From the NCBI GenBank assembly GCA_017510725.1, contig JAFWMD010000049.1, positions 82,478 through 146,477 of the forward strand: a stretch of 64,000 nt of DNA. The letters run 5' to 3'. The translations under genes and the position numbers were made by a program. Below, piece by piece: positions 18,504-57,747 of this stretch. Each line of letters starts with the position of its first letter. Positions within the stretch are counted from its first letter, which is position 1. Origin of the DNA: Mogibacterium sp. (GTDB lineage Bacteria; Bacillota; Clostridia; Peptostreptococcales; Anaerovoracaceae). The notes beneath the pieces were generated by a model, which worked only from the letters and a program-made list of their open reading frames with translations, ran no database searches and was not told where the DNA came from.

Positions 18504-20714
18504 CTACCAGTCTCCGTCGCCCCAGCTGCTGCTTCCGCCGCCGCTTGATTTCTTCTTCTTAGAGGACGACTTTTTCTTCTTGCTTCCGCCGCCGCCACCG
18601 CCGCTGCTTACGACAGGCTTAGGTCCTATGCTCTTGCTGATAGTGACGGTTGAACCCTTGTTGGCGGTCTTGCCGCCTGCTACGGACTGCTCTACGATCG
18701 TTCCCGATGCAGCGCTGTTATAAACTTCTACGACTTCTACGCCGAATCCAAGATCCTTAAGCGCCTTGGATGCCTCATCGGCTCCCTTGCCGACTACATC
18801 AGGCACTTCGACCTGTGTGATGCCCTTGCTCTTAACGACATTGATGACCTGGCCTTCCTCACAGTCGGTGCCCTTCTCGATCTCCTGGCTGATTATCATG
18901 TCCTTGCCAAGTGTGTCAGAGAATTCTTCTCCTGTTACCTCAATGACCAGTCCGAGCTTTTTAGCTGCTTTCTCAGCGTCTCCGAGTTTCTGCCCTACGA
19001 GCTCAGGTGCAGGGATTGGTTTTCCCTTACTGACAACAACCTCAACCGGTGATCCCTTCTTGAGGTGTGATCCGGCTTCAGCCGTCTGAGAAATTACTGT
19101 ATCCCTAGGTACATCATCCGAGAACTGGCGATCTTCTGAATATGAAAGGCCCGCATCTTCTATCGCTGCCTTTGCGCTGTCAGCTCCGAGGCCGGCAACA
19201 TCTGGCACAGTGTGATTGAAGTAGGTAAATGCGAAGATACCCAGAGCAACAACCACCACACCTGCTATGATAGGTATTATAGGTGTCTTCTTCTTTTCAG
19301 CCGGCTTGCGGACCGCAGTTTTTTTGCCGGCAGCAGCAGGTTTCTTCTCTTCGACTGCAGTATCAGCCGCAGCCGGAATTCCTGCATTCATTGCCATAAG
19401 AGCAGGATCACCCATCGTTTCTTCGTCTTCGAGCTCCTGCGAATCAGTGATCGGCACCATGACATCATCCAGATCCTCAGTAGCCTCTATTTCAGGCTTG
19501 AACCTGTCGTCGCTTACGCCCGTGCTCAATTCGATTTCAGGCATTGACGGTTCATGCACGGATGGCTCATGTACCGGTGGTTCCGGTCTTGATGGCTCTG
19601 GTCTGGAAATCTCCTGTACTGAAGGCTCAGACACCCTGACAGGTTCCGGATGCGAATATGCACCCATAGACCTCTCTCTGCCTGCAGCCGCTGAACTGAA
19701 TATCGATACCGTGGCATCTTCAGGAACGGCTGCCGACATGGCTGATCCGGTGCTTGCTTCCATTTTGCCCAGCGAATCGCCGGATGGATAAATCAGACTT
19801 GCTTCGTTGTCGTTGTACAGGATCGCCTCAAGAGCCTTACGCATGTCTCCCGGACGCTCATATCTTTCCTTAGGATCATATGCACACGCCTTGAGAATGA
19901 TCTCTGCAAGGCGTCCATGCGCATTGCATGGAGGAGGAAGCTGTTCTCCGTTCATCCTGCGCATGTTTGCTTTTTCGCGGTCGGAGTATTTGATCTCCTG
20001 CGGATACGGCGGCATCAGCGGAGTCCTGTTATTGTTAAGGAAACGGTAAAGAACTATGCCCAGTGAATAGATATCAACCGTTGAGTCATAGTGCTGCCCC
20101 TTATAGACTTCAGGAGCCATGTACGAATATGTGCCCTTCTTGGACATTCCGACGCTGGCTTTCTCCATCTGCCTTGCGATACCGAAGTCTCCGAGCTTAT
20201 ATGATCCGATGCTGGAGACGAAAATATTCTCAGGCTTGATGTCCCTGTGGATCAGGTTGAACTTCTGGCACACTTCAAGTGCCTTGCACATGTCAATACC
20301 GAGATTGATGACGTCACGGATAGTCAGAGGATGCTGCGAGATATATTGATAAAGCGGAGTCAGAAGCTCCATTCTTATGCAGATCTCCCAGCCGTAATAA
20401 TCCGTAATAGGCGTAACAGAGTGGTCTTCGTAGCTGACTATGTTGCTGTGTCCGCGAAGTTCGGACATCAGGGATATCTCGTCAACGATCTCATCTGCCA
20501 TGCCGCGGAAATACTCGGTCACGCTGTGCTCTTCCATTCCCTCGCTTATTACAGAATTCAGTTCTGATTTGCTCTGAGGGATGCGAATGACTTTAAGCGC
20601 GGATTCGTAAGTACGTCCGAATTCCTTTCTGACTACTTTATATACGCTTCCGAACGCGCCTTCACCGAGAAGTGAATCTATGGTCCAGTCTCTCCATTTA
20701 TCACCAATGTTCAT
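18504..20714 (-). CDS. Hanks-type Ser/Thr protein kinase with three PASTA repeats (K1)
   Basis: GEGAFGSVYK, ALKVIRIPQ, HRDIKPENIF, DFGIAR, YMAPE. TM (IIPIIAGVVVVALGIFAFTYF). PASTA-like VPDVAGLGADSAKAAIEDAGL, APELVGQKLGDAEKAAKKLGL, VPDVVGKGADEASKALKDLGF. Low-complexity tail GGGGGGSKKKKSSSKKKKSSGGGSSSWGDGDW. Confidence 0.92.
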   Translation of the reverse strand: MNIGDKWRDWTIDSLLGEGAFGSVYKVVRKEFGRTYESALKVIRIPQSKSELNSVISEGMEEHSVTEYFRGMADEIVDEISLMSELRGHSNIVSYEDHSVTPITDYYGWEICIRMELLTPLYQYISQHPLTIRDVINLGIDMCKALEVCQKFNLIHRDIKPENIFVSSIGSYKLGDFGIARQMEKASVGMSKKGTYSYMAPEVYKGQHYDSTVDIYSLGIVLYRFLNNNRTPLMPPYPQEIKYSDREKANMRRMNGEQLPPPCNAHGRLAEIILKACAYDPKERYERPGDMRKALEAILYNDNEASLIYPSGDSLGKMEASTGSAMSAAVPEDATVSIFSSAAAGRERSMGAYSHPEPVRVSEPSVQEISRPEPSRPEPPVHEPSVHEPSMPEIELSTGVSDDRFKPEIEATEDLDDVMVPITDSQELEDEETMGDPALMAMNAGIPAAADTAVEEKKPAAAGKKTAVRKPAEKKKTPIIPIIAGVVVVALGIFAFTYFNHTVPDVAGLGADSAKAAIEDAGLSYSEDRQFSDDVPRDTVISQTAEAGSHLKKGSPVEVVVSKGKPIPAPELVGQKLGDAEKAAKKLGLVIEVTGEEFSDTLGKDMIISQEIEKGTDCEEGQVINVVKSKGITQVEVPDVVGKGADEASKALKDLGFGVEVVEVYNSAASGTIVEQSVAGGKTANKGSTVTISKSIGPKPVVSSGGGGGGSKKKKSSSKKKKSSGGGSSSWGDGDW

Positions 20715-20768
20715 TAGTTTGCCAATTTCCTTTCAGTTTCAACATAAATAGCAAATTATTATATCATA

Positions 20769-22400
20769 TTATTTGCCCGTGTCATCATCCCATTCGCATA
20801 TATATCCGAAATATTTCGTGGAGCAGTAGTCCGGCGCTTCTTCATGACTGACGCCGTTAACATTGGATGTGCCTGCATTGTTTATATCGTTCCACCTCAG
20901 ATATTCGCCTGCACCCTGGTCTCCCTTAGTCAGCTGTATCTCAAGGTAATCCTGCCCTTCTTTCTTGATATCGTTTACACCGTCGTTAGGCTGGTTATCG
21001 CCCCAGTTTGAGTAGTCCCAGGCTTCTTCCGTTATCCATTTCCATCTGCTTTCTGATTCCTCGTCGGTACCTCCCAGCCAATAGTGATGGACATTTGCAT
21101 TCTGAGTATCATGCTCTTCTATCAGGTCTGAGATGAAGCTCTGCTCCTCTGCGCTTGTTATTGTGGCGAGGTGTCCGCTGTTTTCCTCGCATGCCGCCCT
21201 TGCCTCTGTCCAGGTAAGGTGTTCATCAATGAGCTTATAATAGTGGCCGTTGAACGCTGCTGCCCCTTCAAGGTATTCCAGAACAGCCTTCTCAGCAGGC
21301 TTCGTTGCCAGGAAGACCCCTCCTGCTATAAAAGCCAGGGCTACGGCAGCAGCTATAAGGATCAGCGGTTTTCTGCTGTGTGAAACAGGAACATCCCTTG
21401 CCGCTGCAGCTGTCGTTCCATCTGCCGCAGCTGCTTCATCTGCTACAGTTGCTTCATCCGCAAAGTCATAGACCGGACGATCGCCGTATTGCTGATAAGC
21501 CTCAAGATCACGGCGCATCTGAGAAGCAGTACGGTATCTGTCTGCCGGATCGGCCGCGCATGCTTTAAGTATGATCTGAGACAGCCTGTTTCCGGCATAT
21601 TGAGGCGCGGGGATCTTTTCTCCGCTGAGCCTTCTGACCCTTGCCTCTTCCTCATCCTGCAATGTCACCTTGGCAGGAGGCACCGGCAGGAACGGCGCCC
21701 TGTTTCCGTTGAGCAATGAATACAGTACTATGCCCAGCGAATAGATATCCACTGTCTCATCATAGCGTTCTCCCCTGAACACCTCAGGAGCCATGTATTT
21801 ATACGTTCCCTTTTTGGACATGCCTCCCGTTGTTTTCTCCATCGTTCTCGCAATACCGAAGTCTCCTAGCTTGAAGTCTCCATTATCCGAAATGAAGATG
21901 TTCTGGGGCTTGATGTCCCTGTGTATGATGTTCTTTTTATGACATATTTCGAGCGCCTTGCAGATGTCTGTGCCCAGCCTTACCACTTCACTCTCATCGA
22001 GCTTTCTTTCGATCATGCGGCTGATCAGCGGCGTGAGCAATTCCATCCTTATAAGGATGTCGTAGCCTATGCCGTCATCGTGAGGGATGATCATGTGATC
22101 TTCATAGCTCACTATATTGCTGTTTCCCTTGAGCTGAGCCATGATCTCGTTCTCATTGATTATCTCTTTGAGAACTGTATTGTAATAATCCGAGATCGAT
22201 GCGAGATCTGAGCCCTCACTTAGCAGACTCCTGATATCCTCCTCATCCTGAGGAACAGTGATTATCTTGAGAGCTGCCCTGTAAGTCGTTCCGAACTCCT
22301 CTCTGGTGATTTCGAATACCTTACCGAAGCTGCCCTTACCTATAAGTCTGCTCAGATACCACGACCCGAAAAACGGTTCATATTTTCTGTACTCTTCCAT
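20769..22400 (-). CDS. Hanks-type Ser/Thr protein kinase with extracellular C-type lectin-like domain (K2)
   Basis: GKGSFGKVFE, ALKIITVPQ, HRDIKPQNIF, DFGIAR, YMAPE. TM (LILIAAAVALAFIAGGVFLA). CTLD pattern: WTEARAACEENSGHLATITSAEEQSFI ... HYWLGGTDEESESRWKWITEEAWDYSNWGDNQPND ... RWNDINN ... YICEW. Confidence 0.88.
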   Translation of the reverse strand: MEEYRKYEPFFGSWYLSRLIGKGSFGKVFEITREEFGTTYRAALKIITVPQDEEDIRSLLSEGSDLASISDYYNTVLKEIINENEIMAQLKGNSNIVSYEDHMIIPHDDGIGYDILIRMELLTPLISRMIERKLDESEVVRLGTDICKALEICHKKNIIHRDIKPQNIFISDNGDFKLGDFGIARTMEKTTGGMSKKGTYKYMAPEVFRGERYDETVDIYSLGIVLYSLLNGNRAPFLPVPPAKVTLQDEEEARVRRLSGEKIPAPQYAGNRLSQIILKACAADPADRYRTASQMRRDLEAYQQYGDRPVYDFADEATVADEAAAADGTTAAAARDVPVSHSRKPLILIAAAVALAFIAGGVFLATKPAEKAVLEYLEGAAAFNGHYYKLIDEHLTWTEARAACEENSGHLATITSAEEQSFISDLIEEHDTQNANVHHYWLGGTDEESESRWKWITEEAWDYSNWGDNQPNDGVNDIKKEGQDYLEIQLTKGDQGAGEYLRWNDINNAGTSNVNGVSHEEAPDYCSTKYFGYICEWDDDTGK

Positions 22401-22428
22401 ATGTCTGTACCTGTTTTTCTATTATGAT

Positions 22429-22500
22429 TTTATAACATCCGTATGCGGGGAATGGCCAAAACTGACAGTCTGCACGTCTATACGCCTGAACGGCATATTT
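22429..22500 (-). promoter_or_regulatory. Candidate regulated promoter of K2-K1 unit: 31-bp phased-repeat element plus extended -10
   Basis: Plus-strand 22470-22500 CTGCACGTCTATACGCCTGAACGGCATATTT has TGCA/GGCA cores 21 nt apart. 35 nt further on in minus-strand reading is TGTTATAAAAT (22437-22427). See the related sites at 31040-31070 and 48006-48036. Confidence 0.45.
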
Positions 22501-22574
22501 ATGCCTGTCCTGCTGCGGATTTGATGCGTAATTATAGCACAGCCCGGTCCGGCATTCGGCTAACCTTTATTTAT

Positions 22575-22583
22575 TGTTATAAT
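22575..22583 (+). promoter_or_regulatory. Extended -10 box (TGtTATAAT) for the plus-strand K3-K4-PP2C unit
   Basis: TG at 22575-22576 and TATAAT at 22578-22583, about 60 nt upstream of GTG 22643. A second TATAAT lies at 22593-22598. Confidence 0.4.
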
Positions 22584-22642
22584 GTTTGATGATATAATAA
22601 TCAGACAGCAATTTTTAACAGTATACGGACAATGGTGGATCA

Positions 22643-28836: not shown

Positions 28837-29271
28837 CTACCTTTCGGACTTTATTGGCCACTCTCCCGTGTCCATGTTTTTCACAGCATCGACGCTGCCG
28901 CTGCCGGTTAGATAGATCCGATACACAGTATCATCCTCCGCTGTTATATCAAGATAACTGTCTCCTCCATCCATTCCAGCCTCTGCACTTTTTATCTGTC
29001 CCGCGCCAATAGTATCAAGGGTTTTAAGTATAAAGCGGATGTTTCTGCTGCCTTCATCGATTCCAAGCGCTTCCGCTATGATTGCTCTGTTATTTTCACT
29101 CATCTCGCCAGTCTCCTCCATTGCATCGTTATCAGCAGGTATCTGTTCTTCAGTCCCGCTTACTGTTGTATCTGCTCCGGCAATACTGTCCTCTTCACCG
29201 CTGTAGTTGCTGCAAGCTGATAGCAGAAGGCACATTATTAGTATATATATGATTGCTATTTTGTTTTTCAT
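28837..29271 (-). CDS. Small lipoprotein; candidate immunity protein for the upstream HExxH effector
   Basis: Lipobox in MKNKIAIIYILIMCLLLSACSNYS. 144 aa, immediately downstream of 29311..30297 on the same strand. Confidence 0.7.
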   Translation of the reverse strand: MKNKIAIIYILIMCLLLSACSNYSGEEDSIAGADTTVSGTEEQIPADNDAMEETGEMSENNRAIIAEALGIDEGSRNIRFILKTLDTIGAGQIKSAEAGMDGGDSYLDITAEDDTVYRIYLTGSGSVDAVKNMDTGEWPIKSER

Positions 29272-29310
29272 TATAACACCATCTTTTCAATATCGCCTGC
29301 CATTTGGTTA

Positions 29311-30297
29311 TTATGCTAATCTGCCGAATCCGCCTGATGGGAAAACCCTGATTACCTGCGGCCCGCTGCTTACTCTGGAATTTCTGTTTACCTGGAAGTC
29401 TCTTGCATCGACCTCAACAGGCTGAGCACGATAGGCATCATAGTCCGTGTCTGAATTGATGTAATTATCAAAATTGTTTTTCCACGTATCTATCGTTTCC
29501 TTAGAAACCATGAATTGTGTAGGGTGATCGATCGCTTCGTGCTGATATGCGTGTCTGAGCTCGTGGCTGACTGTCTCGAGCAGATCATATGAATCCCAGT
29601 TACCCACACTGTCTGCGAGAGCTGCTTCATTCAGTGTAACAGTATGTGTGCCATGAGTATAGTATCCCCAGGTTATGCTCTTACTTGTATACTTCGCATC
29701 CGGATCCCAGTTGATATTCACATTCACATCCTTCAGGCCATATACCTTTATCACTTCATTCATGTAATCCTGAAGTATCTGCTTGCGCTCTTCTATCGAT
29801 GCCTTGTCCCAGTGCTCAGGAGAGTATTTTTCATCCTGAAGGATCTTCCACAGCTCCTTCTTCATCATGGCATCAGCAGCCTTCTCCTGCGCCCTTGTTG
29901 TAGTGTCGTACATGTCAGGATCTTTGTGCCTGAACCAGTCTACGATCTTTTCCCATAGATTTCTCTTATCCGTTCCCGGAAGTACCGGGAAAATATCGGC
30001 TATTGATATTATTATACCGCTCTTACCTGAAAGTATGGCTTTTTCGGCCCTTCTGTAGTAATTTGCGATCGTCTCAAGCGCGCTGCCCATTGAATCCATC
30101 TTGGCGGCTTTGGTCAGAACACTCTCTGACAGATTCATGATCGAAGCATTGATCATAGTATTATAAGCACTGTTGAAGAATCCCGCTTTCTTAACTGCTT
30201 CAATTTCTTTTCCAAGCCTGCTCAGTCTTACTGCAGTCTGGTGTATTTCCATCGAGTAGGAAATAATATTATTTGTATTTACATTGATATCTGTCAT
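29311..30297 (-). CDS. Candidate T7SS effector: N-terminal helical targeting domain plus C-terminal HExxH zincin-like domain
   Basis: The N-terminal ~95 aa are helical; ...SALETIANYYRRAEKAI resembles the Rhs N-terminus (...LQAIASHYEITEIAI) and 47575..47937. The C-terminal region carries LLETVSHELRHAYQHEAIDHP. Confidence 0.7.
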   Translation of the reverse strand: MTDINVNTNNIISYSMEIHQTAVRLSRLGKEIEAVKKAGFFNSAYNTMINASIMNLSESVLTKAAKMDSMGSALETIANYYRRAEKAILSGKSGIIISIADIFPVLPGTDKRNLWEKIVDWFRHKDPDMYDTTTRAQEKAADAMMKKELWKILQDEKYSPEHWDKASIEERKQILQDYMNEVIKVYGLKDVNVNINWDPDAKYTSKSITWGYYTHGTHTVTLNEAALADSVGNWDSYDLLETVSHELRHAYQHEAIDHPTQFMVSKETIDTWKNNFDNYINSDTDYDAYRAQPVEVDARDFQVNRNSRVSSGPQVIRVFPSGGFGRLA

Positions 30298-30308
30298 TTT
30301 GTCACCTC

Positions 30309-30950
30309 TTATACTTCAGGGCTGTCACTTATCTGATCTTCATATATGTCTGTGTCATGCTCACCGGCAGCGATGTTTTCAAGCATCCATATTGTTGCGG
30401 TATTGATCAGGCTGCTTACATCCGGCTGATCCTCCGCGCCGTCTGGCAGGCTGATCTCTGAGATCAATGATCTATCCTTATCCCAGGCTCTTCCGCTTAT
30501 TTTTAAGCACTTGTTTATATCATGCTCCGGTGTAATGGATCCAAGCGCATATGTAAATGCTCCTACAACGAGGTCCAGCCTCGGCAGCAGTTCGATCGTA
30601 TATTTGCCCGGATCATCTGCTTTTGTTATGTTCTTATCGTCTATTACACACAGATAGTATGCATTCCTTATATATACAGTCAGTCCTGCGCTGTTTAATT
30701 CATTATCTATCCTGATTTGCTGCTCAGGTTCTATCATCATGTTCAGCAGGTGATGTGCAAGAGCTCCAAGGTGTATGTTCCCGTCAGTGGATTCGAGAAA
30801 CTCCGCTTCTGCCAGCTCCCTTATCACGCTTTCTTCCTCATCTTCTGTCAGGTCATTTAGTATGTCATTATCTATATCCTCGAACCCTATGAGTTCACCC
30901 TTTCCGTATTTCATCCTGCACAGTGCGATTGCTCTTTGCGATAAATTCAT
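30309..30950 (-). CDS. Acidic cytoplasmic protein, candidate effector chaperone/adaptor
   Basis: 213 aa with no TM or signal peptide, Asp/Glu-rich. First gene of the effector-lipoprotein unit. Good SD (GAGGTGA) upstream of ATG 30950. No family recognised. Confidence 0.6.
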   Translation of the reverse strand: MNLSQRAIALCRMKYGKGELIGFEDIDNDILNDLTEDEEESVIRELAEAEFLESTDGNIHLGALAHHLLNMMIEPEQQIRIDNELNSAGLTVYIRNAYYLCVIDDKNITKADDPGKYTIELLPRLDLVVGAFTYALGSITPEHDINKCLKISGRAWDKDRSLISEISLPDGAEDQPDVSSLINTATIWMLENIAAGEHDTDIYEDQISDSPEV

Positions 30951-30996
30951 ATCCGGTCACCTCGCTTTTTTCATATTGCTCTGATCTGTTATCAAT

Positions 30997-31070
30997 ATCG
31001 TAGCATACAGATTTCGCAATTCTCCTGTATTCCCTTAACATGCAGATATACCGCCCTGAAATGCATATAG
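30997..31070 (-). promoter_or_regulatory. Candidate regulated promoter of the effector unit: 31-bp phased-repeat element plus extended -10
   Basis: Plus-strand 31040-31070 ATGCAGATATACCGCCCTGAAATGCATATAG has ATGCA cores 21 nt apart. 37 nt further on in minus-strand reading is TGCTACGAT (31005-30997). Confidence 0.5.
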
Positions 31071-31073
31071 GTG

Positions 31074-31082
31074 TGCTATCAT
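31074..31082 (+). promoter_or_regulatory. Extended -10 box (TGcTATCAT) for kinase K6, abutting the phased-repeat element
   Basis: TG at 31074-31075 and TATCAT at 31077-31082, about 50 nt upstream of ATG 31134. Confidence 0.4.
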
Positions 31083-31133
31083 ATGAACAGCAGATTTTTC
31101 ATTTTGAAGTTTTGACAGTTCAATTAACAGTAT

Positions 31134-47574: not shown

Positions 47575-47937
47575 CTAATATTCCTCGAAGTGCTCTTTTG
47601 CCTTTACCGTCACATCTCCGAGGAAAATCGTTCCATATGTGACCGGAGCTATATATATCTGATCGCCGTATTCAAGGGAGTCTCTTTCTGTTCTCAGGTA
47701 TTCCTCTGCTACCTTCTCAAGCATCAGGCTCATGCTTTCGGATACCCGGCTCTCCCATTCGATATCTGATACATACCGTTCAAGCTTTTCTGCTATACTG
47801 TGCATCGCCTCATCCGGGTCACTCCTCAGGTAGCTGCAGACCTCTGTTACTATGTCTGCCTGCTGTAGAAGTACTCGTCTGGTCCCTGACAGCTCTTCCG
47901 CAGATCTTATGCATCTGTTTGGATTTACGTCTATCAT
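47575..47937 (-). CDS. Small helical T7SS-associated protein without WXG motif
   Basis: 120 aa. The N-terminus MIDVNPN... and LEKVAEEYLRTERD echo MTDINVN... and LETIANYYRRAEKA of the HExxH effector. It is the first gene after the internal promoter. Confidence 0.7.
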   Translation of the reverse strand: MIDVNPNRCIRSAEELSGTRRVLLQQADIVTEVCSYLRSDPDEAMHSIAEKLERYVSDIEWESRVSESMSLMLEKVAEEYLRTERDSLEYGDQIYIAPVTYGTIFLGDVTVKAKEHFEEY

Positions 47938-47963
47938 TTGTCTGTCTCATCCTTTCTGTCTGT

Positions 47964-48036
47964 AGTATAGCACGCATCCGGGACTTATAACGCAATCTGC
48001 ATAAAATGCATATATTTCATCCCGAAATGCACATTT
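47964..48036 (-). promoter_or_regulatory. Candidate regulated internal promoter of the WXG100/effector unit: 31-bp phased-repeat element plus extended -10
   Basis: Plus-strand 48006-48036 ATGCATATATTTCATCCCGAAATGCACATTT has ATGCA cores 21 nt apart, and an extra TGCAT lies at 47998. 36 nt further on in minus-strand reading is TGCTATACT (47972-47964), then SD AAAGGATGAG and ATG 47937. Confidence 0.55.
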
Positions 48037-48285
48037 CTATACCAGGATGAGTCTGTCGGCATCTCTCACGCCGCTTTCGTACAGTGTTCGGTCAGCTGAG
48101 AGTGGCATTCTTTTGTCTGTGTAGTACAGAACAAATCCGTCATCGCCCGGTTTGAGCTCGCTCTTGGTCCTCCTCGCGATCATCTCCGTCACCTCAAGTA
48201 TGACGACTTCAAGGTCCGCATTCTCATCGAGCATAAAGTCGAAACTCTCGTCCAACGCAGGCATATATATGTCTACCATTATCAT
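48037..48285 (-). CDS. esaB: YukD/EsaB-like ubiquitin-fold T7SS protein
   Basis: 82 aa; MIMVDIYMPALDESFDFMLDENADLEVVI...YYTDKRMPLSADRTLYESGVRDADRLILV fits the YukD beta-grasp pattern. It has a 4-nt overlap with the upstream gene and lies in the essC/WXG100 context. Confidence 0.8.
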   Translation of the reverse strand: MIMVDIYMPALDESFDFMLDENADLEVVILEVTEMIARRTKSELKPGDDGFVLYYTDKRMPLSADRTLYESGVRDADRLILV

Positions 48286-48950
48286 TGTGATTTACCTCCT
48301 GCCCAGCTTCTCATAATTTCTTTTATACTTTCCATGGTGAACATCTCTCTCATTGAAAATGTCCGGCTGTTTTGTATAATCATCCCATATGTGCCGCAGT
48401 CGAAAAGCATAAGCTTCTCCAGCAGCTTCCCGTCCGGAATGCTGCGCACAGCAAACTCTGATATCAGGTCGCCATTCTCGGGAAACATGTGCTCCGCGTC
48501 CATGTCCGGAGGAGCCTCCATTACCTTAGGGAGGTATCCTCCCTTTTCGAACATTGAGATCCATTCATCTGCGGACATCAGCGTCAGTTTGATCTCATCG
48601 GTTCCCAGCAGGCTTCTCTCGCTGATAACTACCCTGCCATCGCTGCAGTAACTCCCGATGTCGGAATTCTGCTCTCTTAAGTTTGTACTTGTAATACATA
48701 CCGGAGCGCTCCTCAGGACATCAAACACCGGCCTTACATTGTCGGATACCCTTGCCTTGCTCTCTCCCCACTCTATCAGGCCTTTGCGGTACAGCCCGGC
48801 GATACATCCGTTGAGCCTTATATCATCATTTGCAAAGCCTGTATCTCCGCTGAGTTCTATGCCGTACCATCCGCTGATTCCTGCTGCGGAGAGAAGGAGA
48901 ATGAACTCTTCATTATTCAGTATCAATGTTTCTGCTGCCCGAAATTCCAC
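48282..48950 (-). CDS. T7SS-associated cytoplasmic protein of unknown function
   Basis: 222 aa with no TM, located between the LytTR gene and yukD. The start may be internal, because it overlaps the upstream gene by 38 nt. Confidence 0.6.
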   Translation of the reverse strand: MEFRAAETLILNNEEFILLLSAAGISGWYGIELSGDTGFANDDIRLNGCIAGLYRKGLIEWGESKARVSDNVRPVFDVLRSAPVCITSTNLREQNSDIGSYCSDGRVVISERSLLGTDEIKLTLMSADEWISMFEKGGYLPKVMEAPPDMDAEHMFPENGDLISEFAVRSIPDGKLLEKLMLFDCGTYGMIIQNSRTFSMREMFTMESIKEIMRSWAGGKSQ

Positions 48951-49662
48951 GCAGGTACTCCTTTACTGACGCTTTGTATGATCTTGACAGAGGCACTATT
49001 ATGTTGTTTTCCAGGTATACCGCATTATCTGAAAGCTTGATTCGCTCAAGAAATCCGGAGTTGAACATGAAGCTGCGGTGGCTCTGCACGAATGTCTGCG
49101 GCAGATCCTTTCTCACATTATCCAGAGTATCATACTTGCTGTATTCCCTGTCCCGGAGTCTGAAATAAACTTTCTTGTTTCGTGCCTCTATATAATATAT
49201 CTGATTATACGGTACGACTGTTTTGCCGTCCCTGTTTTCTATAACTATGGAATTTCCTTCATCCGGTACATCCTTTTTACGGAAATAAGATGAAAGGAAT
49301 TCGCGTATGACCGAACGCATCGCTTCTTCCTGATATGGTCGCAGCAGAAGTGAGCATGCCCGTATGTCCGGCGTGAGATATTTCATGGGTGAAACAGTCC
49401 CGTCGGCTACAAGCATGATATCAGCGTCTGTCCTGCCGGATCTCACCGTTCTGCTGAGATCTACATCCCCATCATCTTTGATTTCAAGCACGGAGAGATC
49501 AAACGGATCATCCTTGCCGAGGTATTTATATAACCCGCCGGCATCCAGAAACCCCTTGCAGGAAAGGCTGTCGTCAGACATGTAAGCGACCATGTCTCTT
49601 GCATGCCTGGCAACACGCTCCATTTCCTTTTTATCACGGTCATAAATCAGCAGATCTATCAT
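48913..49662 (-). CDS. LytTR-family DNA-binding protein with degenerate receiver-like N-terminal domain
   Basis: C-terminal LytTR pattern: IVIENRDGKTVVPYNQIYYIEARNKKVYFRLRDREYSKYDTLDNVRKDLP.TFVQSHRSFMFNSGFLERI. The N-terminus (MIDLLIYDRDKKE...) resembles a receiver, but the acidic pocket reads YDRD. It overlaps the essC stop by 4 nt. Confidence 0.8.
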   Translation of the reverse strand: MIDLLIYDRDKKEMERVARHARDMVAYMSDDSLSCKGFLDAGGLYKYLGKDDPFDLSVLEIKDDGDVDLSRTVRSGRTDADIMLVADGTVSPMKYLTPDIRACSLLLRPYQEEAMRSVIREFLSSYFRKKDVPDEGNSIVIENRDGKTVVPYNQIYYIEARNKKVYFRLRDREYSKYDTLDNVRKDLPQTFVQSHRSFMFNSGFLERIKLSDNAVYLENNIIVPLSRSYKASVKEYLRGISGSRNIDTE

Positions 49663-52600
49663 TTGCTCTTGTCTTCCTGCTCAATCTTCTTAACAAGCGG
49701 AACTACTACCTTACGCGTAGCGTTCTCATCATATACATCAGGCAGCTGGCCCACGCCGACCTTGGCGTTTTTGTTCTGTTCGGAATAAGGCATATACTCA
49801 AAATTGAGCAATGTGTTGGCTGCGACATTGCCGCCCATGTGGATACCCTTCTTGTAACCCGTGAAGCTGTCGAATGCAGCATATCCGCTCGCATTTGCCT
49901 TATTCTTGATCGAAAGATCTCCAATAAAGTATATATTGTTTCCACTGCCCTTGGCGATTATGTTTTCAAACAGTGGTGCAAGATTGATAGTCGACTTGTA
50001 AATCAGATTGATGAACTGGTCGATCTGCGGCAGGAAGAAGAATACCGGCTTGAATTCGCTGCTCATCACCTCGAATATCTCGTCAGCCTCCTTGCCCTCG
50101 CTAATGAGTACATCCTTGCGTTTTCTGCGCTCAATAAAGTCAGGAATAAGCTTTCCAAGGTAGCTTTCGAGTTCCTTCTCTGTCACTACATACGTGACTC
50201 CCGGAGACTCCTTGAACATGCTGAGATCGTTCTCACCATTGTCCACTATGCAGATCTCAGCACCCTTCTTAAGTGCACCAAGCACGCATATCTTGAGCAG
50301 GTTTGTCTTGCCGGTCTGCATCGCGCCGTAGATACCATAACAGAATGTCTCGTTCAGAGGTATTCCGTATACCGCAGCGCTTGCGGCATCGTATCCGATT
50401 GGCAGCAGATCCTTGCGTGCAATCATGTTCTCGTATTCTTCCAGTCTTGAGAACGACTGCCATACCGGCTTCTCAGGTATCTCAGGTACCGGTCTAGCAA
50501 GTCTTCCCGTCCACGTCTCTGCCATTTTGTCGCAAATGGCTCTGATACCTTCCATACGCTCATAGTCGTTGTCTGCTCTGACCGCAAGTGCAGTCTGATA
50601 CTCAAGGATCCTGGTGCCATAGTAAGCAAGGCCTCTTCCCTTGACTCCACTCTCAGGCAGAACGCTTATCTGTGTTGTATGCAGCAGGTCGCCGTACTCG
50701 AACTTATCCTTAAGCGACAGAGTAAGCACTGTGCTCATGTTCTCTCCTACGCGGGAGGTGATCTCTGCGGCGCTGTATCCTCCTCCGGATACGAGCAGGA
50801 AGATACCATTGCTGATGCCTTCCTTTGACAGCCTGATCATATCTTCTTCATAAGCTTCATTGGTCTTCTGCTTGAATGCACCGTAGTTGTCTATCATGAT
50901 GAAGATGGCAGGCATTGTTACTCCGTTTACACGGACGTACTGCTTATAGCTTCCGCCGCGGAAGATCTTCTTTCTCTCTTCAAGTATGCCGTTGATCATG
51001 TTGAAGAATTTGCCGATCTTCTCCTTGTCATTTTCATACATGACTCCGCCGAACTGAGGAGCGTTCTCAAACGCAGACATCATCTTGCTGCTGAAGTCCA
51101 GTGCGTAGATATTCACCACCTCAGGCGAGTATCTCTGTATCAGCGAGAATGCGATCGTCTGCATCGTGGTACTCTTACCGCTGACGATGGATCCGCAGAT
51201 CGCCATGTTGCCATCTTCAGCAAAGTCGATGTCGAATGGCATCTGTGCCTGATTCTCAGGGTCATCCATCTGTCCGATGGTGACAGCCAGATTCCAGTTG
51301 CTGTCAGCCGGTTTCCACGACCCGTTTGTAGTAAAAGCATTGTCTCTGTATGCCGGGAATTCCTCCAGGAATATCCTCTCTCTGAGGACAGGCAGCCACA
51401 GCTGGTGCTTGGCTGTATATCCATTCTCTTTTGCAACTACAGCCAGGTATTCCTTGATGGCATCGAGCTCTGTGTGCTCCTTCTGCTGCGGCAGCTTTCT
51501 TCCGGTCTCGGCAGAATATGCTACAAGGCCCTCTGCATCAGGAATGTCTCCCTCTGCGCTGAGCTCTGCGTACATGCGTACAAGGTCCTGAAGTCTTGCA
51601 GTATTGAACTTGCTCTCCTGATAGTCAATGTTGCTCCTGGCCATGATGTCGTACATGCCAGTGATAATTGCCTGTACGTTATCCGGATCACCGAGGCTTC
51701 CGTCAGATTCCGCGAGTACTGCTGCTGCAGTCTGTTCCAGCATGTCTATGAGCTTCTCCGCCCATCTGATTTCCGCTGTCTTCTTGCGGGCCTGCTTGAT
51801 CGAGTTACCGGTCATGTCGACCTTTCCTGTAAGGCTGATCAGCTTGGCGACGTCAGCATTGCCCTCGTATGAGCTTTCATCATATGCAGCTCCGCTGTAT
51901 CCTGACTGGAACAGCTCGTACAGCTCGTCATTACCTACCTGCAGGTAACATCTTCCGGCCTGTGTGATGTAAGCAGCATCAGGCTTGTGCAGCATGTCGT
52001 TACTGTCCTGCTTATCCTGTACTCTTAAGCACAGTCTGAATTTGGAGTTACTCCAGATGTTATCGTCTACTGTACCGCTAGGCTTCTGTGTGGCGAGTAT
52101 CAGGTGTACTCCGAGGCTTCGTCCTACCTGGGCTACGCTGATGAGCTCGCGCATGAACTCAGGCTCTTCGCGCTTCAGTTCGGCGAACTCGTCTATTATG
52201 ATGAAGAGGTGCGGAACCGGAGTCGTGACCTCTCCGTTTTTGTACAGTTTTGTGTATGCGTTTATGTTGTTGACGCCGTTCTCCGTAAAGATCCTCTGTC
52301 TGCGCCTGTTCTCACTCTTGATGGAGATCATCGCACGCTTGACTTGGTTGCCCGACAGGTTTGAAATGGATCCTGCCATCTGAGGCATTCCGTCGAAGAG
52401 GTTGGCCATTCCACCGCCCTTATAGTCTATGATGAAGAACGCTACATCATCCGGGCTGTAGTTGATAGCAAGTGAGAGGATGTATGTCTGAAGCGTCTCA
52501 CTCTTTCCGGATCCGGTAGTACCCGCAACCAGGCCGTGAGGTCCGTGGTATTTTTCGTGTACGTCCAGATAGCAAGGCACGCCGCCGGCTTTCTGTCCGA

Positions 52601-54698
52601 CAAGGCCTTTAATGTTCTCATATACCCTGCTCTTTGCCCAGAGTTCTTCAACCGGCAGGTCTTCAGGCTTCTTGATACCCATCATGTCGAAGAACGTGAG
52701 TGAGTTAGGGATCTCGCCTCCGGATTCGATCTCAAGAACCTTAAGTTTGGATACGCGTCTTGCAAACTGTTCGAGATCGTCCTTGTTTACCTGGTCGAAT
52801 ACTATGGATGCATCCTGATCCGACTCAGCTGTCGTCTCATAGTAACCTCTGAAATTATTAGTATTTTCTATGATGAACTCACAGCTGTTTGGAAGTTCTT
52901 CATATCTTTCTGCCAGCATGATTGTTGTCAGGCCGTACAGTGCGTTATCTTCGAATATGTATTTTGAGAACATCTCGCCTTCAATCAGAGACTGATCTGA
53001 TATGAAGAGCACGAAGTATGGTTTAGGGAATGCCGCTTTTGGAGAGGAATTGTTGCTGGTGGCTTCCTCAGCCCTTGCACGCATGACATTACCCATTTCA
53101 TACAGGATGTCTCCTACTTCATCACGGTTGGATGCTACATACCTGGTTTTTCTGTCCTCTGACCAGACATGAGGCAGCCATTTTGCAAAGCCCCACTCAT
53201 CATGGTCGGCAGATTTGCTTCCGTCATAAATGTATGCCAGCTTGACATCCGTATAGCAATTGTTGGTTGCGATCTGGGCACTGAGTACTCTTGCTATGTC
53301 GATAGCGCCCTTCTTCATTTCACCTCCAACGATACCTATAATATGATGTTCGCTGAGGTCTACTGTTATAGGAACATTGCTGAGCGTCCTGTATGATGAT
53401 TTGATCATCTCAGGTCTCTCTGCAAGGTCATCTTCATACAACGAGAACCGGCTGGAAGGTATTCCGATCTCCATGTTGAACGGTGCATTACCCATTCCAA
53501 GCCTGTGAACAAGGAAGTCTCTGTGTGATACGTTTCTGCTCCACAGAGAACCCGACGTTTCATCGTACTGCAGGCACTTGTTTACTTCCGGATAGTTCTC
53601 ATGCAGGCTCTGAGTCGTTTCTTCATATACTTTCTTGATTTCTTCACTCTTTTTGATCAGATAATCGCCGTATTTATTGAGTCGGAGTTCCTTAAGCGCC
53701 GCAAGCTCTTTCTTTGATTGCTTGCGGTTGATAAGAGTCCACATGACTCCGATGAAGGCAGACGAAACAGCCATTACAAGGCCGGAGAACATGAAGAGGT
53801 TTCCTCCGCCACCCATCGTTCCCTGAGATCTGTACGACATGATCATGAGCGAGCATCCCAGCAGCATAGGCAGTGACATTGTCAGGGCCGGGCCGACAGA
53901 CATGAACAGGGACTGGTTCCTCTCCTGAGGGAGCGGCGGTGGTCCTTCGATCTCGATTTTCTCATGACGGATACTCTCTACATAACGAGGCGCTCTTCTG
54001 TAGGTCGTTTTACCCTGAGACAACGTTTTATTGGTTCTGGTCGGTCTCTTTGCATTTGCGGAAGGTGTTATCAGTCTCTTCAGCTTGGCCTCATTGATCG
54101 TTACTTTGTAATTCTTGGTATCGATTGCCAGGAGTGATCCGAGGTACACCATGTGAAGGCCGATGATGTTGATGTAGTCTCCAAATTCGAGCCTGATGCG
54201 ATCCTGGATCTTGACTGAGTTGACATAAATACCGTTGTCACTCATGTTCCTTATGTATGTTTCGCCTCCGCTTGACGTGATTTCGGCATGATGTCGCGAT
54301 ACCATTCCTCCGAAGTTGTATGCGATATCGTTCGAAGGGTCCTTTCCGATGGTGATACTATCTACATTACTGATTCTGTACTTGGACATCGAATGGAACG
54401 GACTGTCTGAATCCGACACGATGAGTGACAGGAGGTCTCCCTTGATCGTGGAAATTCCCACCATAAGTCTGTCAGACAGCTCGACCTCGCTGTAGCGGTC
54501 TTTGAGTACCGTCAGGCTGTATTCCGGACGCTCCTTGATTTTCCATACGTTGTTCATGACCTCAAGTGAAAGTTCGAGGTCGTCAGAAAGCTTGAACTGA
54601 TCCTTGAGGATGGTTATCTCGCAGTCTGAGTTGTTGATTGAAGGAAGAATGAATTCTTTGAAAGCTTCCTTTGAATAGATCGACAGAATAAGGCTCAT
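49659..54698 (-). CDS. essC: EssC/YukB-type FtsK-SpoIIIE T7SS ATPase (two N-terminal FHA-like domains, two TM, three P-loop domains)
   Basis: FHA-like ITIGKDPSNDIAYNFGGMVSRHHAEI...MSDNGIYVNS. TMs LFMSVGPALTMSLPMLLGCSLMIM and LFMFSGLVMAVSSAFIGVMWTLI. Walker A boxes GTTGSGKSE, GSIVSGKST, GAMQTGKTN. Walker B LFIIIDEFAEL. Confidence 0.93.
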   Translation of the reverse strand: MSLILSIYSKEAFKEFILPSINNSDCEITILKDQFKLSDDLELSLEVMNNVWKIKERPEYSLTVLKDRYSEVELSDRLMVGISTIKGDLLSLIVSDSDSPFHSMSKYRISNVDSITIGKDPSNDIAYNFGGMVSRHHAEITSSGGETYIRNMSDNGIYVNSVKIQDRIRLEFGDYINIIGLHMVYLGSLLAIDTKNYKVTINEAKLKRLITPSANAKRPTRTNKTLSQGKTTYRRAPRYVESIRHEKIEIEGPPPLPQERNQSLFMSVGPALTMSLPMLLGCSLMIMSYRSQGTMGGGGNLFMFSGLVMAVSSAFIGVMWTLINRKQSKKELAALKELRLNKYGDYLIKKSEEIKKVYEETTQSLHENYPEVNKCLQYDETSGSLWSRNVSHRDFLVHRLGMGNAPFNMEIGIPSSRFSLYEDDLAERPEMIKSSYRTLSNVPITVDLSEHHIIGIVGGEMKKGAIDIARVLSAQIATNNCYTDVKLAYIYDGSKSADHDEWGFAKWLPHVWSEDRKTRYVASNRDEVGDILYEMGNVMRARAEEATSNNSSPKAAFPKPYFVLFISDQSLIEGEMFSKYIFEDNALYGLTTIMLAERYEELPNSCEFIIENTNNFRGYYETTAESDQDASIVFDQVNKDDLEQFARRVSKLKVLEIESGGEIPNSLTFFDMMGIKKPEDLPVEELWAKSRVYENIKGLVGQKAGGVPCYLDVHEKYHGPHGLVAGTTGSGKSETLQTYILSLAINYSPDDVAFFIIDYKGGGMANLFDGMPQMAGSISNLSGNQVKRAMISIKSENRRRQRIFTENGVNNINAYTKLYKNGEVTTPVPHLFIIIDEFAELKREEPEFMRELISVAQVGRSLGVHLILATQKPSGTVDDNIWSNSKFRLCLRVQDKQDSNDMLHKPDAAYITQAGRCYLQVGNDELYELFQSGYSGAAYDESSYEGNADVAKLISLTGKVDMTGNSIKQARKKTAEIRWAEKLIDMLEQTAAAVLAESDGSLGDPDNVQAIITGMYDIMARSNIDYQESKFNTARLQDLVRMYAELSAEGDIPDAEGLVAYSAETGRKLPQQKEHTELDAIKEYLAVVAKENGYTAKHQLWLPVLRERIFLEEFPAYRDNAFTTNGSWKPADSNWNLAVTIGQMDDPENQAQMPFDIDFAEDGNMAICGSIVSGKSTTMQTIAFSLIQRYSPEVVNIYALDFSSKMMSAFENAPQFGGVMYENDKEKIGKFFNMINGILEERKKIFRGGSYKQYVRVNGVTMPAIFIMIDNYGAFKQKTNEAYEEDMIRLSKEGISNGIFLLVSGGGYSAAEITSRVGENMSTVLTLSLKDKFEYGDLLHTTQISVLPESGVKGRGLAYYGTRILEYQTALAVRADNDYERMEGIRAICDKMAETWTGRLARPVPEIPEKPVWQSFSRLEEYENMIARKDLLPIGYDAASAAVYGIPLNETFCYGIYGAMQTGKTNLLKICVLGALKKGAEICIVDNGENDLSMFKESPGVTYVVTEKELESYLGKLIPDFIERRKRKDVLISEGKEADEIFEVMSSEFKPVFFFLPQIDQFINLIYKSTINLAPLFENIIAKGSGNNIYFIGDLSIKNKANASGYAAFDSFTGYKKGIHMGGNVAANTLLNFEYMPYSEQNKNAKVGVGQLPDVYDENATRKVVVPLVKKIEQEDKSK

Positions 54699-54901
54699 CT
54701 GTTATTTCCTCTCTTATTTGTTATCTGTTCATCAAGCATATTGAATTTGCTTAATTCCTGCTTGCTGTTGATTTCAGCTACCCTGGCTTTTTTCAGACGT
54801 GAGAATTTTACGGTAAAAAATATGAGAACTGCTGCGACAACGACCTCAACCGCAAGCCAGAAATAATATGATGTGAATATTTCCTTGAGTTGTTCTTCCA
54901 T
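54695..54901 (-). CDS. 68-aa single-TM protein translationally coupled to essC
   Basis: TM YYFWLAVEVVVAAVLIFFTV followed by a basic segment. It has a 4-nt overlap with the essC start. Confidence 0.6.
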   Translation of the reverse strand: MEEQLKEIFTSYYFWLAVEVVVAAVLIFFTVKFSRLKKARVAEINSKQELSKFNMLDEQITNKRGNNR

Positions 54902-57594: not shown

Positions 57595-57747
57595 GATCTG
57601 TAAACCGTCCTTTCAGATGATGTCTGTAATAATACTTACATAAAAAAAGAATGCACTATTCTATACTATAATAACACATTCTCTCCCTTGAATCTATGAA
57701 TCTATTGCCTCCCGCATCGTATCCCATGCAGGATAAAAAGTTGCATT

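Follow-up and report, generated by a model that had tools for sequence, protein, structure and literature searches.

Three 31-bp elements of fixed geometry occur on a 64,000-nucleotide stretch of DNA (the window, by which we mean the whole of that stretch), in a locus which also encodes a type VII secretion system (T7SS) apparatus, its WXG100 proteins and a regulator with the REC-LytTR fold. Each element is likely to be a LytTR-type operator which the locus-encoded REC-LytTR protein binds and through which it activates the adjoining promoter. The main site, site A, co-occurs with the regulator gene, and sequence alignments give strong grounds for concluding that its position is kept in some 25 to 30 related loci of gut and rumen bacteria.

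Three direct-repeat elements, their predicted promoters and their genes

The elements lie at 48006-48036 (site A), 31040-31070 (site B) and 22470-22500 (site C) in plus-strand coordinates and match exactly the sequences reported in the earlier note, the structural claims of which all held, with none contradicted. The identities it gave of 22/31 between sites A and B and 19/31 between sites B and C were reproduced (sites A and C also share 19/31), as was the 21-nt phasing, each site consisting of two direct repeats of about 9 bp placed 21 bp apart. Read on the minus strand, the distal box of site A (box 1, AAATGTGCATTT, 48025..48036) starts one base past the YukD stop codon and scores 14.6 bits with a matrix derived from other genomes, and the proximal box (box 2, ATATATGCATTT, 48004..48015) follows 21 bp from box 1 and scores 10.2 bits. 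Site B (31040..31070, minus strand) carries the boxes CTATATGCATTT and ATATCTGCATGT and is supported by its identities, by the triple search described below and by its conservation; site C (22470..22500, minus strand) carries AAATATGCCGTT and AGACGTGCAGAC and is supported by its identities, by the same search and by the family matrix. An exhaustive ungapped search of the three intergenic regions for the best-scoring triple of 31-mers returned exactly these three sites with a sum of pairs of 60; dinucleotide-preserving shuffles scored 48.9 +/- 1.66 with a maximum of 56, and 0 of 1000 reached 60. A matrix built from the three sites found no fourth copy in the 64-kb window, the next best match scoring 11 bits versus 40-44 bits for the sites.

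Each element is followed on the minus strand by an extended -10 of the pattern TGnTAnnn[T/A]: TGCTATACT at 47964..47972, 33 nt past site A; TGCTACGAT at 30997..31005, 34 nt past site B; and TGTTATAAA at 22429..22437, 32 nt past site C, with predicted transcription starts near 47957, 30990 and 22422, respectively. The distances of 36, 37 and 35 nt claimed previously are the same spacings measured to the -10 hexamer. This pattern occurs in the window at a frequency of 0.002 per position, so that three matches within a 4-nt slot would arise by chance with a probability of about 6e-7. None of the three sites showed a -35 match or a sigma-70 -35/-10 pair. Relative to the expected -35 position, the end of the 12-mer box lies about 10 nt upstream and that of its 9-mer core about 13 nt upstream, and TGnTAnnnT lies 32-35 nt past the 9-mer core. 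Published LytTR promoters, whose core elements are weak, have 9-bp repeats with a 12-bp spacer located about 10 bp upstream of the -35, together with an extended -10 (PMC6193735, PMC4005675); the rule for the spacer is 12 bp (a 21-bp period), with 11-13 bp tolerated (PMC6193735, PMC4005675).

The gene starts at 47937, 30950 and 22400, which had been placed downstream of the elements, are indeed the starts of ORFs of 120, 213 and 543 aa, and Pfam and NCBIfam recovered the gene content that had been named from the sequence (LytTR, YukD, EssC, the WXG100 array, FHA-trypsin, Rhs, eight Hanks kinases and PP2C). On the minus strand, site A is followed by a gene for a helical 120-aa protein with no Pfam match (47575..47937), by five WXG100 genes (47565-45792; Pfam/NCBIfam) and then by FHA-trypsin, Rhs, DUF6560, kinase, PP2C and kinase genes, in a predicted unit that reaches 33074. 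Site B heads a minus-strand module of genes for 213-aa, 328-aa and 144-aa proteins (28837..30950), the 328-aa product having a helical N-terminus and a HELRH motif; kinase K5 (26884-28677, minus strand) comes after this module, separated from it by a 159-bp gap. The site C unit (18504..22400, minus strand) consists of kinase K2 (20769-22400), which joins a Pkinase domain to a C-type lectin domain and is the first gene after the site, and kinase K1 (18504-20714), which has Pkinase and PASTA domains. The T7SS apparatus genes (48037..54698, minus strand) are predicted to be cotranscribed with the regulator and comprise EssC (49659-54698), an FHA-bearing EssC-type ATPase, the LytTR gene, a gene for a 222-aa protein (48282-48950) between LytTR and YukD, and YukD itself (48037-48285), the last apparatus gene before site A. 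The 222-aa protein found no match in Pfam, NCBIfam or a PDB profile search (its single-sequence AF2 model has a pLDDT of 34), is predicted to lack membrane helices (the highest Kyte-Doolittle mean over 19 residues being 1.36) and showed no similarity to the 213-aa protein of the site B module.

Conservation of the sites in related loci

The earlier note had proposed that conservation of the element be checked in orthologous loci, and this comparison yielded the layout of site A in 24 loci and of site B in its orthologues. The gene order EssC, LytTR, a protein of about 220 aa, YukD and WXG100 array is kept in 24 loci from Anaerovoracaceae, Mogibacterium, Lachnospiraceae, Eubacterium and Clostridium; the apparatus gene order of the window is also found in loci L001-L030, where the LytTR gene again lies two genes upstream of site A. 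This co-occurrence holds among loci which were all retrieved through the LytTR gene. In the 24 loci the gap between YukD and the WXG genes always contains, directly after the YukD stop codon, a box, 12 bp, a second box, 33-35 nt and TGnTA. Between box 1 and the -10 the alignment of these loci is ungapped, the -10 occupying a single column, and the box period is exactly 21 bp throughout this alignment and in the three window sites. Mean information content across the 24 loci is 1.07 bits for box 1, 0.98 bits for box 2 and about 1.9 bits for the TG of the -10, as against 0.40 bits for the linker and 0.18 bits upstream, the intervening sequence not being conserved. The orthologous regulators of these loci range from 86% down to about 35% identical.

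The family consensus of the box is A-A-A-Y-R-K-G-Y-M-n-T-T, with AAATGTGCATTT as the box of the window's own clade. Among 46 tabulated half-sites (44 from other genomes and the two of site A), position 7 is G in all 46 and position 3 is A in 45. There was no clean covariation between the clade of the regulator and the flavour of the box, and the TGTGCA and CAGGTC variants occur side by side in single sites. The canonical LytTR consensus is [TA][AC][CA]GTTN[AG][TG]; the window-clade box AATGTGCAT agrees with it at only 6-7 of 9 positions, and the family variant AACAGGTCA at 8 of 9. Functional boxes often diverge from the canonical consensus, as described for the LRS (PMC6193735).

A half-site matrix trained on other genomes only was used to scan 127,934 positions of the window. 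The box pair of site A ranked first with 24.9 bits and that of site C second with 24.4 bits, the next match scoring 16.2 bits, and none of 100 local shuffles reached 24 bits with this matrix. Site B is weak by the family matrix (5.9 bits, rank 48) and scores 13.9 bits (rank 5) with a clade matrix. Sites absent from the training set were recovered upstream of WXG100-type genes at position 14568 of L019 and position 788 of L066. A candidate box pair at 57649-57681 on the minus strand, upstream of the apparatus operon, scored 15.9 and 18.2 bits (ranks 4 and 2), with the wrong spacing to a -10. Box pairs were also present upstream of Zn-ribbon-EssC-LytTR operons in L021 and L022, the pair in L022 being followed by an extended -10 at the right spacing.

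In L001-L007 the gene which opens the apparatus operon differs at its N-terminus.

A metagenome scan for the pattern AAATRTGCATTTCRG-N11-TGCAT, which is unbiased for gene content, returned 22 stretches, most of which were set aside as unrelated chance or marine matches, with only L048 and L044 being informative. L044 is an agr-type locus which encodes a REC-LytTR regulator, and its agrB is preceded by four tandem 21-bp copies of AAATGTGCATTTCAGGTCGAA.

Site B is conserved in its orthologues at 26/31 positions in L062 and 29/31 in L065, compared with 17/30 and 23/30 for the linker and 7/30 and 17/30 for the flanks, and the -10 is found at the same distance (TGCTACGAT in L065 and TGTTACGAT in L062). 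The three-gene module is kept in L062, L065 and L066 without the trailing kinase. The L066 gene product is a distant homologue of the 213-aa protein (34% identity), and that locus was rejected as a source of a site B equivalent, having none. Site C is kept in position in a single orthologue, L069, where it is no better conserved than its linker (20/31 versus 19/30). The homologues of K2 in L070 and L071 lie inside operons and have no boxes, and a second kinase/PP2C cluster in L072, a 22-kb segment elsewhere on the probable source contig, has no box pair above 13 bits. The previous claim of kinase genes at the end of every unit is therefore correct for this window but does not extend to other loci (the L062 module, L070/L071, L072); the "kinase regulon" aspect is specific to the lineage of the window.

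The locus-encoded regulator and the proposed circuit

The candidate cognate regulator is a protein of 249 aa (48913..49662, minus strand) consisting of a degenerate receiver and a LytTR DNA-binding domain (residues 148-237; Pfam, E = 5.6e-17). Its family profile matches full-length ComE (4cbv) over residues 11-241, and its AF2 model (pLDDT 87) has the (beta-alpha)5 topology of a receiver, in agreement with Foldseek matches to ComE (E = 2e-15), to the LytTR domain of AgrA (TM 0.85, rmsd 1.4 A) and to receiver domains. Residues His195, Arg196, Asn201, Arg227 and Lys230 are invariant. The phospho-acceptor Asp is missing, Glu60 standing at the end of beta-3 (residues 56-61), and Arg108-Pro109 is found where Lys-Pro is expected after beta-5; across the family the acceptor position is taken by E, S, K, R or A, with Asp confined to the three members that are most distant. 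No HisKA/HATPase domain was found among the 46 window ORFs scanned. Given the Glu at the acceptor position and the lack of a nearby histidine kinase, His-Asp phosphotransfer is probably not what sets the activity of the regulator.

In the circuit we propose, the two imperfect direct-repeat boxes, whose starts are 21 bp (about two helical turns) apart, would be centred near -75 and -54 (about -79 to -47 overall) of a promoter which has an extended -10 and no -35. A dimer of the REC-LytTR protein (48913-49662) would occupy both boxes in tandem and recruit RNA polymerase, as do ComE, AgrA and HdrR. The conserved primary target would be the promoter between the apparatus genes and the WXG100 substrate and effector genes, and this genome would have two further operator promoters, one for the 213-aa/HExxH/144-aa module and one for the kinase pair K2-K1. 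The reading of the elements as LytTR operators, advanced in the earlier note, is supported by the layout common to the 24 loci, the other-genome matrix, the site B orthologues, the L044 locus and the published promoter layout; from these we infer binding, and activation rather than repression, and the extents of the operons and the input signal are likewise predictions. It is conceivable, though unlikely, that the regulator is a pseudo-receiver LytTR protein set by Ser/Thr phosphorylation through the Hanks kinases, PP2C phosphatases and FHA proteins of the locus. With the kinase genes K2-K1 and, closing the substrate unit, K8-PP2C-K7 located behind the regulator's operators, such phosphorylation would create a positive loop from kinase to LytTR protein to kinase. 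If true, this loop would couple the sensing of envelope or contact, through ectodomains of the PASTA and lectin kinds, to a burst in the expression of T7SS substrates and toxins, and the Ser/Thr-kinase input would be a new wiring of a secretion system to eukaryote-like kinases.

The boxes could be real LytTR operators and still be bound by another regulator, such as an agr-type quorum-sensing response regulator encoded elsewhere, with the locus-encoded protein having other targets or serving only as a co-factor. We regard this as quite unlikely, since the boxed promoter is conserved together with the regulator gene, at a distance of two genes, in at least 24 loci of several families, the LytTR domain of the locus-encoded protein is intact (His195, Arg196 and Asn201 being invariant) and no agr-like genes were found in the window. 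What speaks for such a binder is that the conventional REC-LytTR/GHKL kinase/AgrB system of L044 uses virtually the same box, so that the occupant could be some other LytTR regulator encoded by this genome, together with the degenerate receiver of the locus-encoded protein and the portion of the genome inspected, which amounts to 64 kb plus 22 kb.

A protein that binds the boxes might also repress or only modulate, the substrate genes being driven mainly by read-through from the apparatus operon. The absence of a terminator between YukD and the first substrate gene, which suggests that read-through also contributes to expression of the WXG genes, is compatible with this alternative, as is the ability of LytTR proteins to repress in some contexts, for example AgrA at bsaA (PMC4227749). 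It is nevertheless improbable: boxes at about -79 to -47 of a promoter lacking a -35 are in the activator position of ComE, AgrA and LRS promoters (PMC6193735), a roadblock would not need a conserved extended -10 at a fixed distance, and sites B and C head their own units, behind divergent genes or a terminator (L062).

Paralogy among the kinases and the mosaic nature of the locus would agree with a third view, in which the three copies are functionless leftovers of duplicated promoter DNA carried along with kinase and effector modules. The retention of boxes and -10 where the flanks are unalignable, the same architecture in genera whose regulators are only 35-45% identical and the return of sites A and C as the top two matches of a matrix from other genomes make this very improbable. 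An action of the element as RNA (a leader structure, riboswitch or terminator of the YukD transcript) would suit the position of site A directly after a stop codon and has next to no likelihood, as the window has no Rfam match, the folds are no more stable than those of shuffles (z = -1.2, 0.0 and -0.5), no terminator-like hairpin was found at any of the three sites, the repeats are direct rather than inverted, and the predicted transcription start at sites B and C falls downstream of the element.

Significance and comparison with known systems

Almost nothing is known of the regulation of non-canonical T7SS in gut and rumen Clostridia. No paper connecting LytTR with T7SS or type VII secretion came up in our literature searches, and the only published hint we found is one sentence on a LytR-like gene in the T7SSi cluster of Vallitalea (PMC11217815). 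The present analysis supplies a concrete cis-element, coordinates of the transcription start for a predicted promoter, and a likely regulator which is apparently independent of His-Asp phosphorylation. The conserved logic that we propose is one in which the apparatus operon would encode the activator of the substrate and effector operon, and the half-site matrix can be used to predict effector genes coregulated with T7SS in many uncultured Lachnospiraceae and Anaerovoracaceae.

Of the characterized regulators, ComE of Streptococcus pneumoniae is the best structural match (4cbv). Its boxes at comAB, comCDE and comX consist of two imperfect 9-bp direct repeats with 12 bp between them (PMC4005675), and the repeat spacing, the two-domain fold and, as proposed here, the tandem binding of LytTR domains are points of likeness. 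In contrast, the sequence of the ComE box is not that of the window; ComE is phosphorylated on Asp58 by ComD, whereas the window regulator has no adjoining histidine kinase and carries Glu60 at the equivalent position, a substitution like that of the ComE D58E mimic; and ComE acts on competence genes, whereas the window regulator is predicted to act on T7SS substrate, effector and kinase genes. AgrA of Staphylococcus aureus likewise acts at P2/P3 through paired direct repeats, which lie upstream of promoters whose core elements are poor (PMC4227749), the window LytTR domain superposes on that of AgrA, and the box of the agr-type locus L044 is nearly that of the window; however, the window has no AgrB, AgrC or AgrD, and its regulator gene lies inside a secretion-apparatus operon. 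The LRS of S. mutans (HdrRM/BrsRM; PMC6193735) match in promoter anatomy and also have boxes that diverge from the textbook consensus. They differ in that LRS regulators are receiver-less and held by a cotranscribed membrane inhibitor, whereas the window regulator has a receiver-like domain and is followed by a gene whose 222-aa product has no predicted membrane helix, and in that autoregulation is not clearly seen in the window.

In gene content the locus resembles the T7SSi of Vallitalea, which includes TsiN, a predicted LytR-like regulator that may control the cluster (Garrett and Palmer 2024, PMC11217815). Both have an FHA-bearing EssC-type ATPase, a YukD-like protein, WXG100 genes beside candidate toxins and a LytR-like gene within the cluster. 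T7SSi clusters further include an EspG-like chaperone; in the window the protein considered for this role was the 222-aa product, which matched nothing in Pfam, NCBIfam or PDB sequences. In the published account the type is confined to Vallitalea, and neither an operator nor a promoter is described (PMC11217815), whereas about 30 syntenic loci from Lachnospiraceae, Eubacterium, Anaerovoracaceae and Clostridium are described here and the cis-element is defined. The proposed operator belongs to a known kind, and what is new is its occurrence in a type of T7SS in which a LytR-like gene had only been noted.

Three predicted promoters with a common element

Three 31-bp elements, read on the minus strand, lie at 48006-48036 (site A), 31040-31070 (site B) and 22470-22500 (site C), each consisting of a distal (box 1) and a proximal (box 2) direct repeat whose starts are 21 bp apart. 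Re-reading of the window confirmed both the coordinates and the letters proposed for them in the earlier note, with pairwise identities of 22/31, 19/31 and 19/31. An exhaustive search of all ungapped 31-mer triples over the three intergenic regions (47938-48036, 30951-31133 and 22401-22642) returned these same elements as the optimum; their sum of pairs was 60, compared with a mean of 48.9 +/- 1.66 (maximum 56) for the best triple in 1000 dinucleotide-preserving shuffles. A scan of the 64 kb with a matrix built from the three copies found no fourth copy.

On the minus strand, the elements at sites A, B and C are followed after 33, 34 and 32 nt by the extended -10 sequences TGCTATACT, TGCTACGAT and TGTTATAAA, respectively, and then by ORFs of 120, 213 and 543 aa; the 36, 37 and 35 nt of the earlier note are the same spacings counted to the -10 hexamer. 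Since TGnTAnnn[T/A] occurs in the window at 0.002 per position, the chance of finding all three within a 4-nt slot is ~6e-7. A -35/-10 consensus scan detected no ordinary sigma-70 promoter at site A, B or C, which is how activator-dependent extended -10 promoters would look. A third TGCA (TTTTATGCAGATT, minus strand, 47998-48001) is located ~10 nt downstream of the site A proximal box and is retained in L001 alone, the closest relative (TTTTGTGCTGATT), and not across the wider family.

Genes were assigned by Pfam and NCBIfam. The minus-strand run begins with FHA, FHAx2 and zinc-ribbon proteins, followed by a 67-aa ORF with a single hydrophobic transmembrane helix (MEEQLKEIFTSYYFWLAVEVVVAAVLIFFTV...; 54700-54901), which fills the interval before EssC (TIGR03928, above cut-off), such that this gap is no promoter region. 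Next come the 249-aa LytTR regulator (48913-49662), a 222-aa protein (48282-48950), YukD and then site A, downstream of which are a 120-aa helical protein, five WXG100 genes, FHA-trypsin, Rhs and DUF6560 genes and, at the end of the run, AAA-kinase, PP2C and kinase genes. For the 222-aa protein, Pfam, NCBIfam and PDB-sequence searches gave no match and no membrane helix was predicted; it may be the counterpart of the EspG-like component of T7SSi. Site B precedes a module of 213-, 328- and 144-aa proteins, with the Hanks kinase gene K5 next after a 159-bp gap; the N-terminus of the 328-aa protein (29311-30297, minus strand) is helical, and an HELRH motif lies towards the C-terminus, suggesting a metallopeptidase-like T7SS effector. 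Behind site C are K2 (kinase and C-type lectin) and K1 (kinase and PASTA). Altogether the window encodes eight Hanks kinases, two PP2C phosphatases and several FHA proteins, in addition to teichoic-acid-type and further envelope genes, and its closest genome loci are from rumen Anaerovoracaceae and Mogibacterium MAGs.

Conservation of the box pair

The regulator has ~109 relatives in the protein collection, and a genome scan with their alignment yielded 39 loci, ~30 of them with full-length relatives. These share the gene order EssC, LytTR, a 205-271-aa protein (always present in the LytTR-YukD interval, as in the window), YukD (82-99 aa) and, beyond a gap, a ~115-125-aa protein and a WXG100 array; they come from Anaerovoracaceae, Mogibacterium, Lachnospiraceae, Eubacterium, Robinsoniella, Clostridium sp. 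MCC353, Oribacterium and E. plexicaudatum. The proposed element proved conserved in these orthologous loci: 24 YukD-WXG gaps align gap-free from the distal box to the -10, with box 1 (12 nt), 9 nt, box 2 (12 nt) and, 34-35 nt past the 9-nt core of box 2, TGnTAnnnT. Mean information content in this alignment was 1.07 bits for box 1, 0.98 bits for box 2 and about 1.9 bits for the TG of the -10, compared with 0.40 bits for the linker and 0.18 bits upstream of box 1. In pairwise comparisons with L001-L006, 21-26 of the 31 positions of the site A element are kept, versus 9-21 of 30 in the linker. The half-site consensus (n=46; 44 from other genomes and two of site A) is A-A-A-Y-R-K-G-Y-M-n-T-T, with G7 invariant (46/46) and A3 in 45/46. 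Two flavours, (A)ATGTGCA and (A)ACAGGTC, are mixed even inside single sites, the latter resembling the textbook LytTR box.

The 44 half-sites of other genomes, with the window left out, gave a half-site matrix with which all 21-bp-spaced box pairs on either strand were scored (127,934 positions). Sites A and C ranked first and second (24.9 and 24.4 bits), the next best position scored 16.2 bits, and site B ranked 48th (5.9 bits); in 100 local shuffles of the window no pair scored 24 bits or more. With a matrix restricted to the clade of the window, the window itself again being excluded, sites A, B and C ranked 1, 5 and 6. The half-site matrix also recovered two sites outside its training set, one preceding a WXG-type first gene (L019, position 14568) and one preceding WXG100 genes and correctly spaced from TGATACGAT (L066, position 788).

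Extent of the predicted regulon

The 213-aa protein behind site B has few relatives. Where it is 65% (L062-L064) or 67% (L065) identical, 26/31 and 29/31 positions of the element are kept, respectively, with TG(T/C)TACGAT 34 nt past it, while a 34%-identical homologue (L066) has no site B equivalent. In L062 the flanks have diverged (7/30 in the upstream 30 nt, 17/30 in the linker) and the next gene upstream, on the same strand, encodes PP2C and has a terminator hairpin; this assigns the element to the 213-aa gene as part of its promoter and not to the divergent kinase. The 213/328/144-aa module was found again in L062, L065 and L066.

For site C, a K2 orthologue (L069, 80% identical) has the same divergent arrangement. 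Its box pair stands at a distance from TGTTGTAAAAT identical to that in the window, with box 1 changed from AAATATGCC to AAAAAGGTC, both of which occur elsewhere in the family; the element as a whole (20/31) is no better conserved than the linker (19/30). No boxes were found at the K2-type kinases of L070 and L071, whose genes are inside operons. Boxes were also absent from L072 (ERZ27256855 k141_1794178, 61237-83288), a further 22-kb stretch of the probable source contig, whose second kinase/PP2C cluster combines lectin-domain Hanks kinases and PP2C with zinc-ribbon proteins and cell-wall enzymes. From these orthologue comparisons, the WXG promoter would be the conserved core target, and the effector module and kinase pair lineage-specific additions. 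Of the earlier claim of a LytTR operator defining a T7SS/kinase regulon, the operator reading has comparative support, and the kinase part is lineage-specific. A second, perfect extended -10 (TGCTATAAT, 22531-22539, minus strand) faces the same direction ~30 nt upstream of site C, is retained as TGATATACT in L069, and could serve K2-K1 as a tandem constitutive promoter.

Additional box pairs were observed elsewhere. In L021 (1067-1099) and L022 (3096-3128; TGTTATACT at the right distance) a pair lies upstream of the zinc-ribbon gene preceding EssC and the LytTR gene, which suggests positive autoregulation of the apparatus/regulator operon in these two lineages. A window candidate at 57649-57681 (minus strand; GAATGTGTTATT-N9-AATAGTGCATTC; 15.9 bits with the family matrix, 18.2 bits and rank 2 with the clade matrix) lies in the gap before the first gene of the regulator-encoding apparatus operon, an FHA gene with its start at 57594; this candidate breaks the spacing rule because the nearest -10-like hexamer is ~17 nt too close, and could be an autoregulatory site or chance. 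Furthermore, a strong box pair with TGCTATAAT in L004 (9331-9363) and L048 (52-82) precedes the gene for a 253-aa zinc-ribbon membrane protein, located downstream of the WXG array, which appears to be a further lineage-specific regulon member.

The regulator and known LytTR and T7SS systems

The obvious candidate for binding the boxes is the locus-encoded 249-aa protein. A LytTR domain (Pfam E = 5.6e-17) makes up its C-terminal half, with His195, Arg196, Asn201, Arg227 and Lys230 invariant across the family, whose profile aligns with full-length ComE (4cbv, E = 3e-7). In the AF2 model (pLDDT 87), a (beta-alpha)5 receiver precedes the LytTR beta fold, and Foldseek ranked ComE first (E = 2e-15), followed by AgrA LytTR-DNA complexes (TM 0.85, rmsd 1.4 A) and numerous receiver domains. 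The receiver is degenerate, with Glu60 at the end of beta-3 in the place of the phospho-Asp and Arg108-Pro109 for Lys-Pro; across the family the acceptor position is E, S, K, R or A, and Asp only in the three most distant members. Given that ComE D58E is an active, dimeric mimic (PMC4005675), the natural Glu60 suggests that the regulator would act independently of His-Asp phosphotransfer. The window ORFs scanned include no histidine kinase.

An unbiased metagenome pattern scan matched L044 (ERZ779829 contig), an agr-type locus (REC-LytTR regulator, AgrC-type GHKL kinase, AgrB) with the same box as the window: AAATGTGCATTTCAGGTCGAA is repeated four times in tandem, with a 21-bp period, upstream of agrB, and a 1714-aa gene is preceded by two further copies (about 8730-8830 and 2213-2250, motif orientation on the reverse strand). 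This locus provides independent support for the window box being a LytTR box. It also makes cross-talk conceivable, with another LytTR regulator as the binder, but the tight co-conservation of the boxes with the locus regulator gene speaks against that. That the three copies are duplication relics is disfavoured by their cross-genus conservation with unalignable flanks.

We propose that an activator encoded by the apparatus operon would bind both boxes as a dimer, centred near -75 and -54, and recruit RNA polymerase to a promoter without a -35, thereby raising substrate and effector genes over the read-through level. In this scheme the element, its geometry, its conservation, its linkage to the regulator gene and the fold of the regulator come from the analysis above, and the input signal, the operon extents, binding and an activating effect are inferred. 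Repression or mere modulation by the regulator is argued against by the box position and the missing -35, and action as an RNA element by ordinary folds and the lack of any Rfam match in the window.

This architecture agrees with that of published LytTR promoters, in which 9-bp repeats with a 12-bp spacer lie ~10 bp upstream of the -35 with an extended -10 (PMC6193735), and of the ComE operator, with DR1 and DR2 of 9 bp and a 12-mer linker (PMC4005675). The library searched contained no paper connecting LytTR with T7SS. Garrett and Palmer (2024) described the T7SSi type, reported in Vallitalea only, whose cluster is unique in having a LytR-like regulator, TsiN, which "may potentially" regulate it (PMC11217815); an FHA-bearing ATPase, YukD, a regulator and WXG100 genes adjoining toxins are common to that cluster and the window. 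LytTR operators as a kind, and a LytR-like gene in one T7SS type, are thus already known, and the present result, conceptually unsurprising, is a solid regulatory prediction, open to direct testing, for a secretion-system family that is poorly understood. What is new is the predicted operator itself, its conserved placement at the apparatus/substrate gene boundary, its apparent occurrence at about 30 loci from several families, and the putatively non-phosphorylatable receiver.
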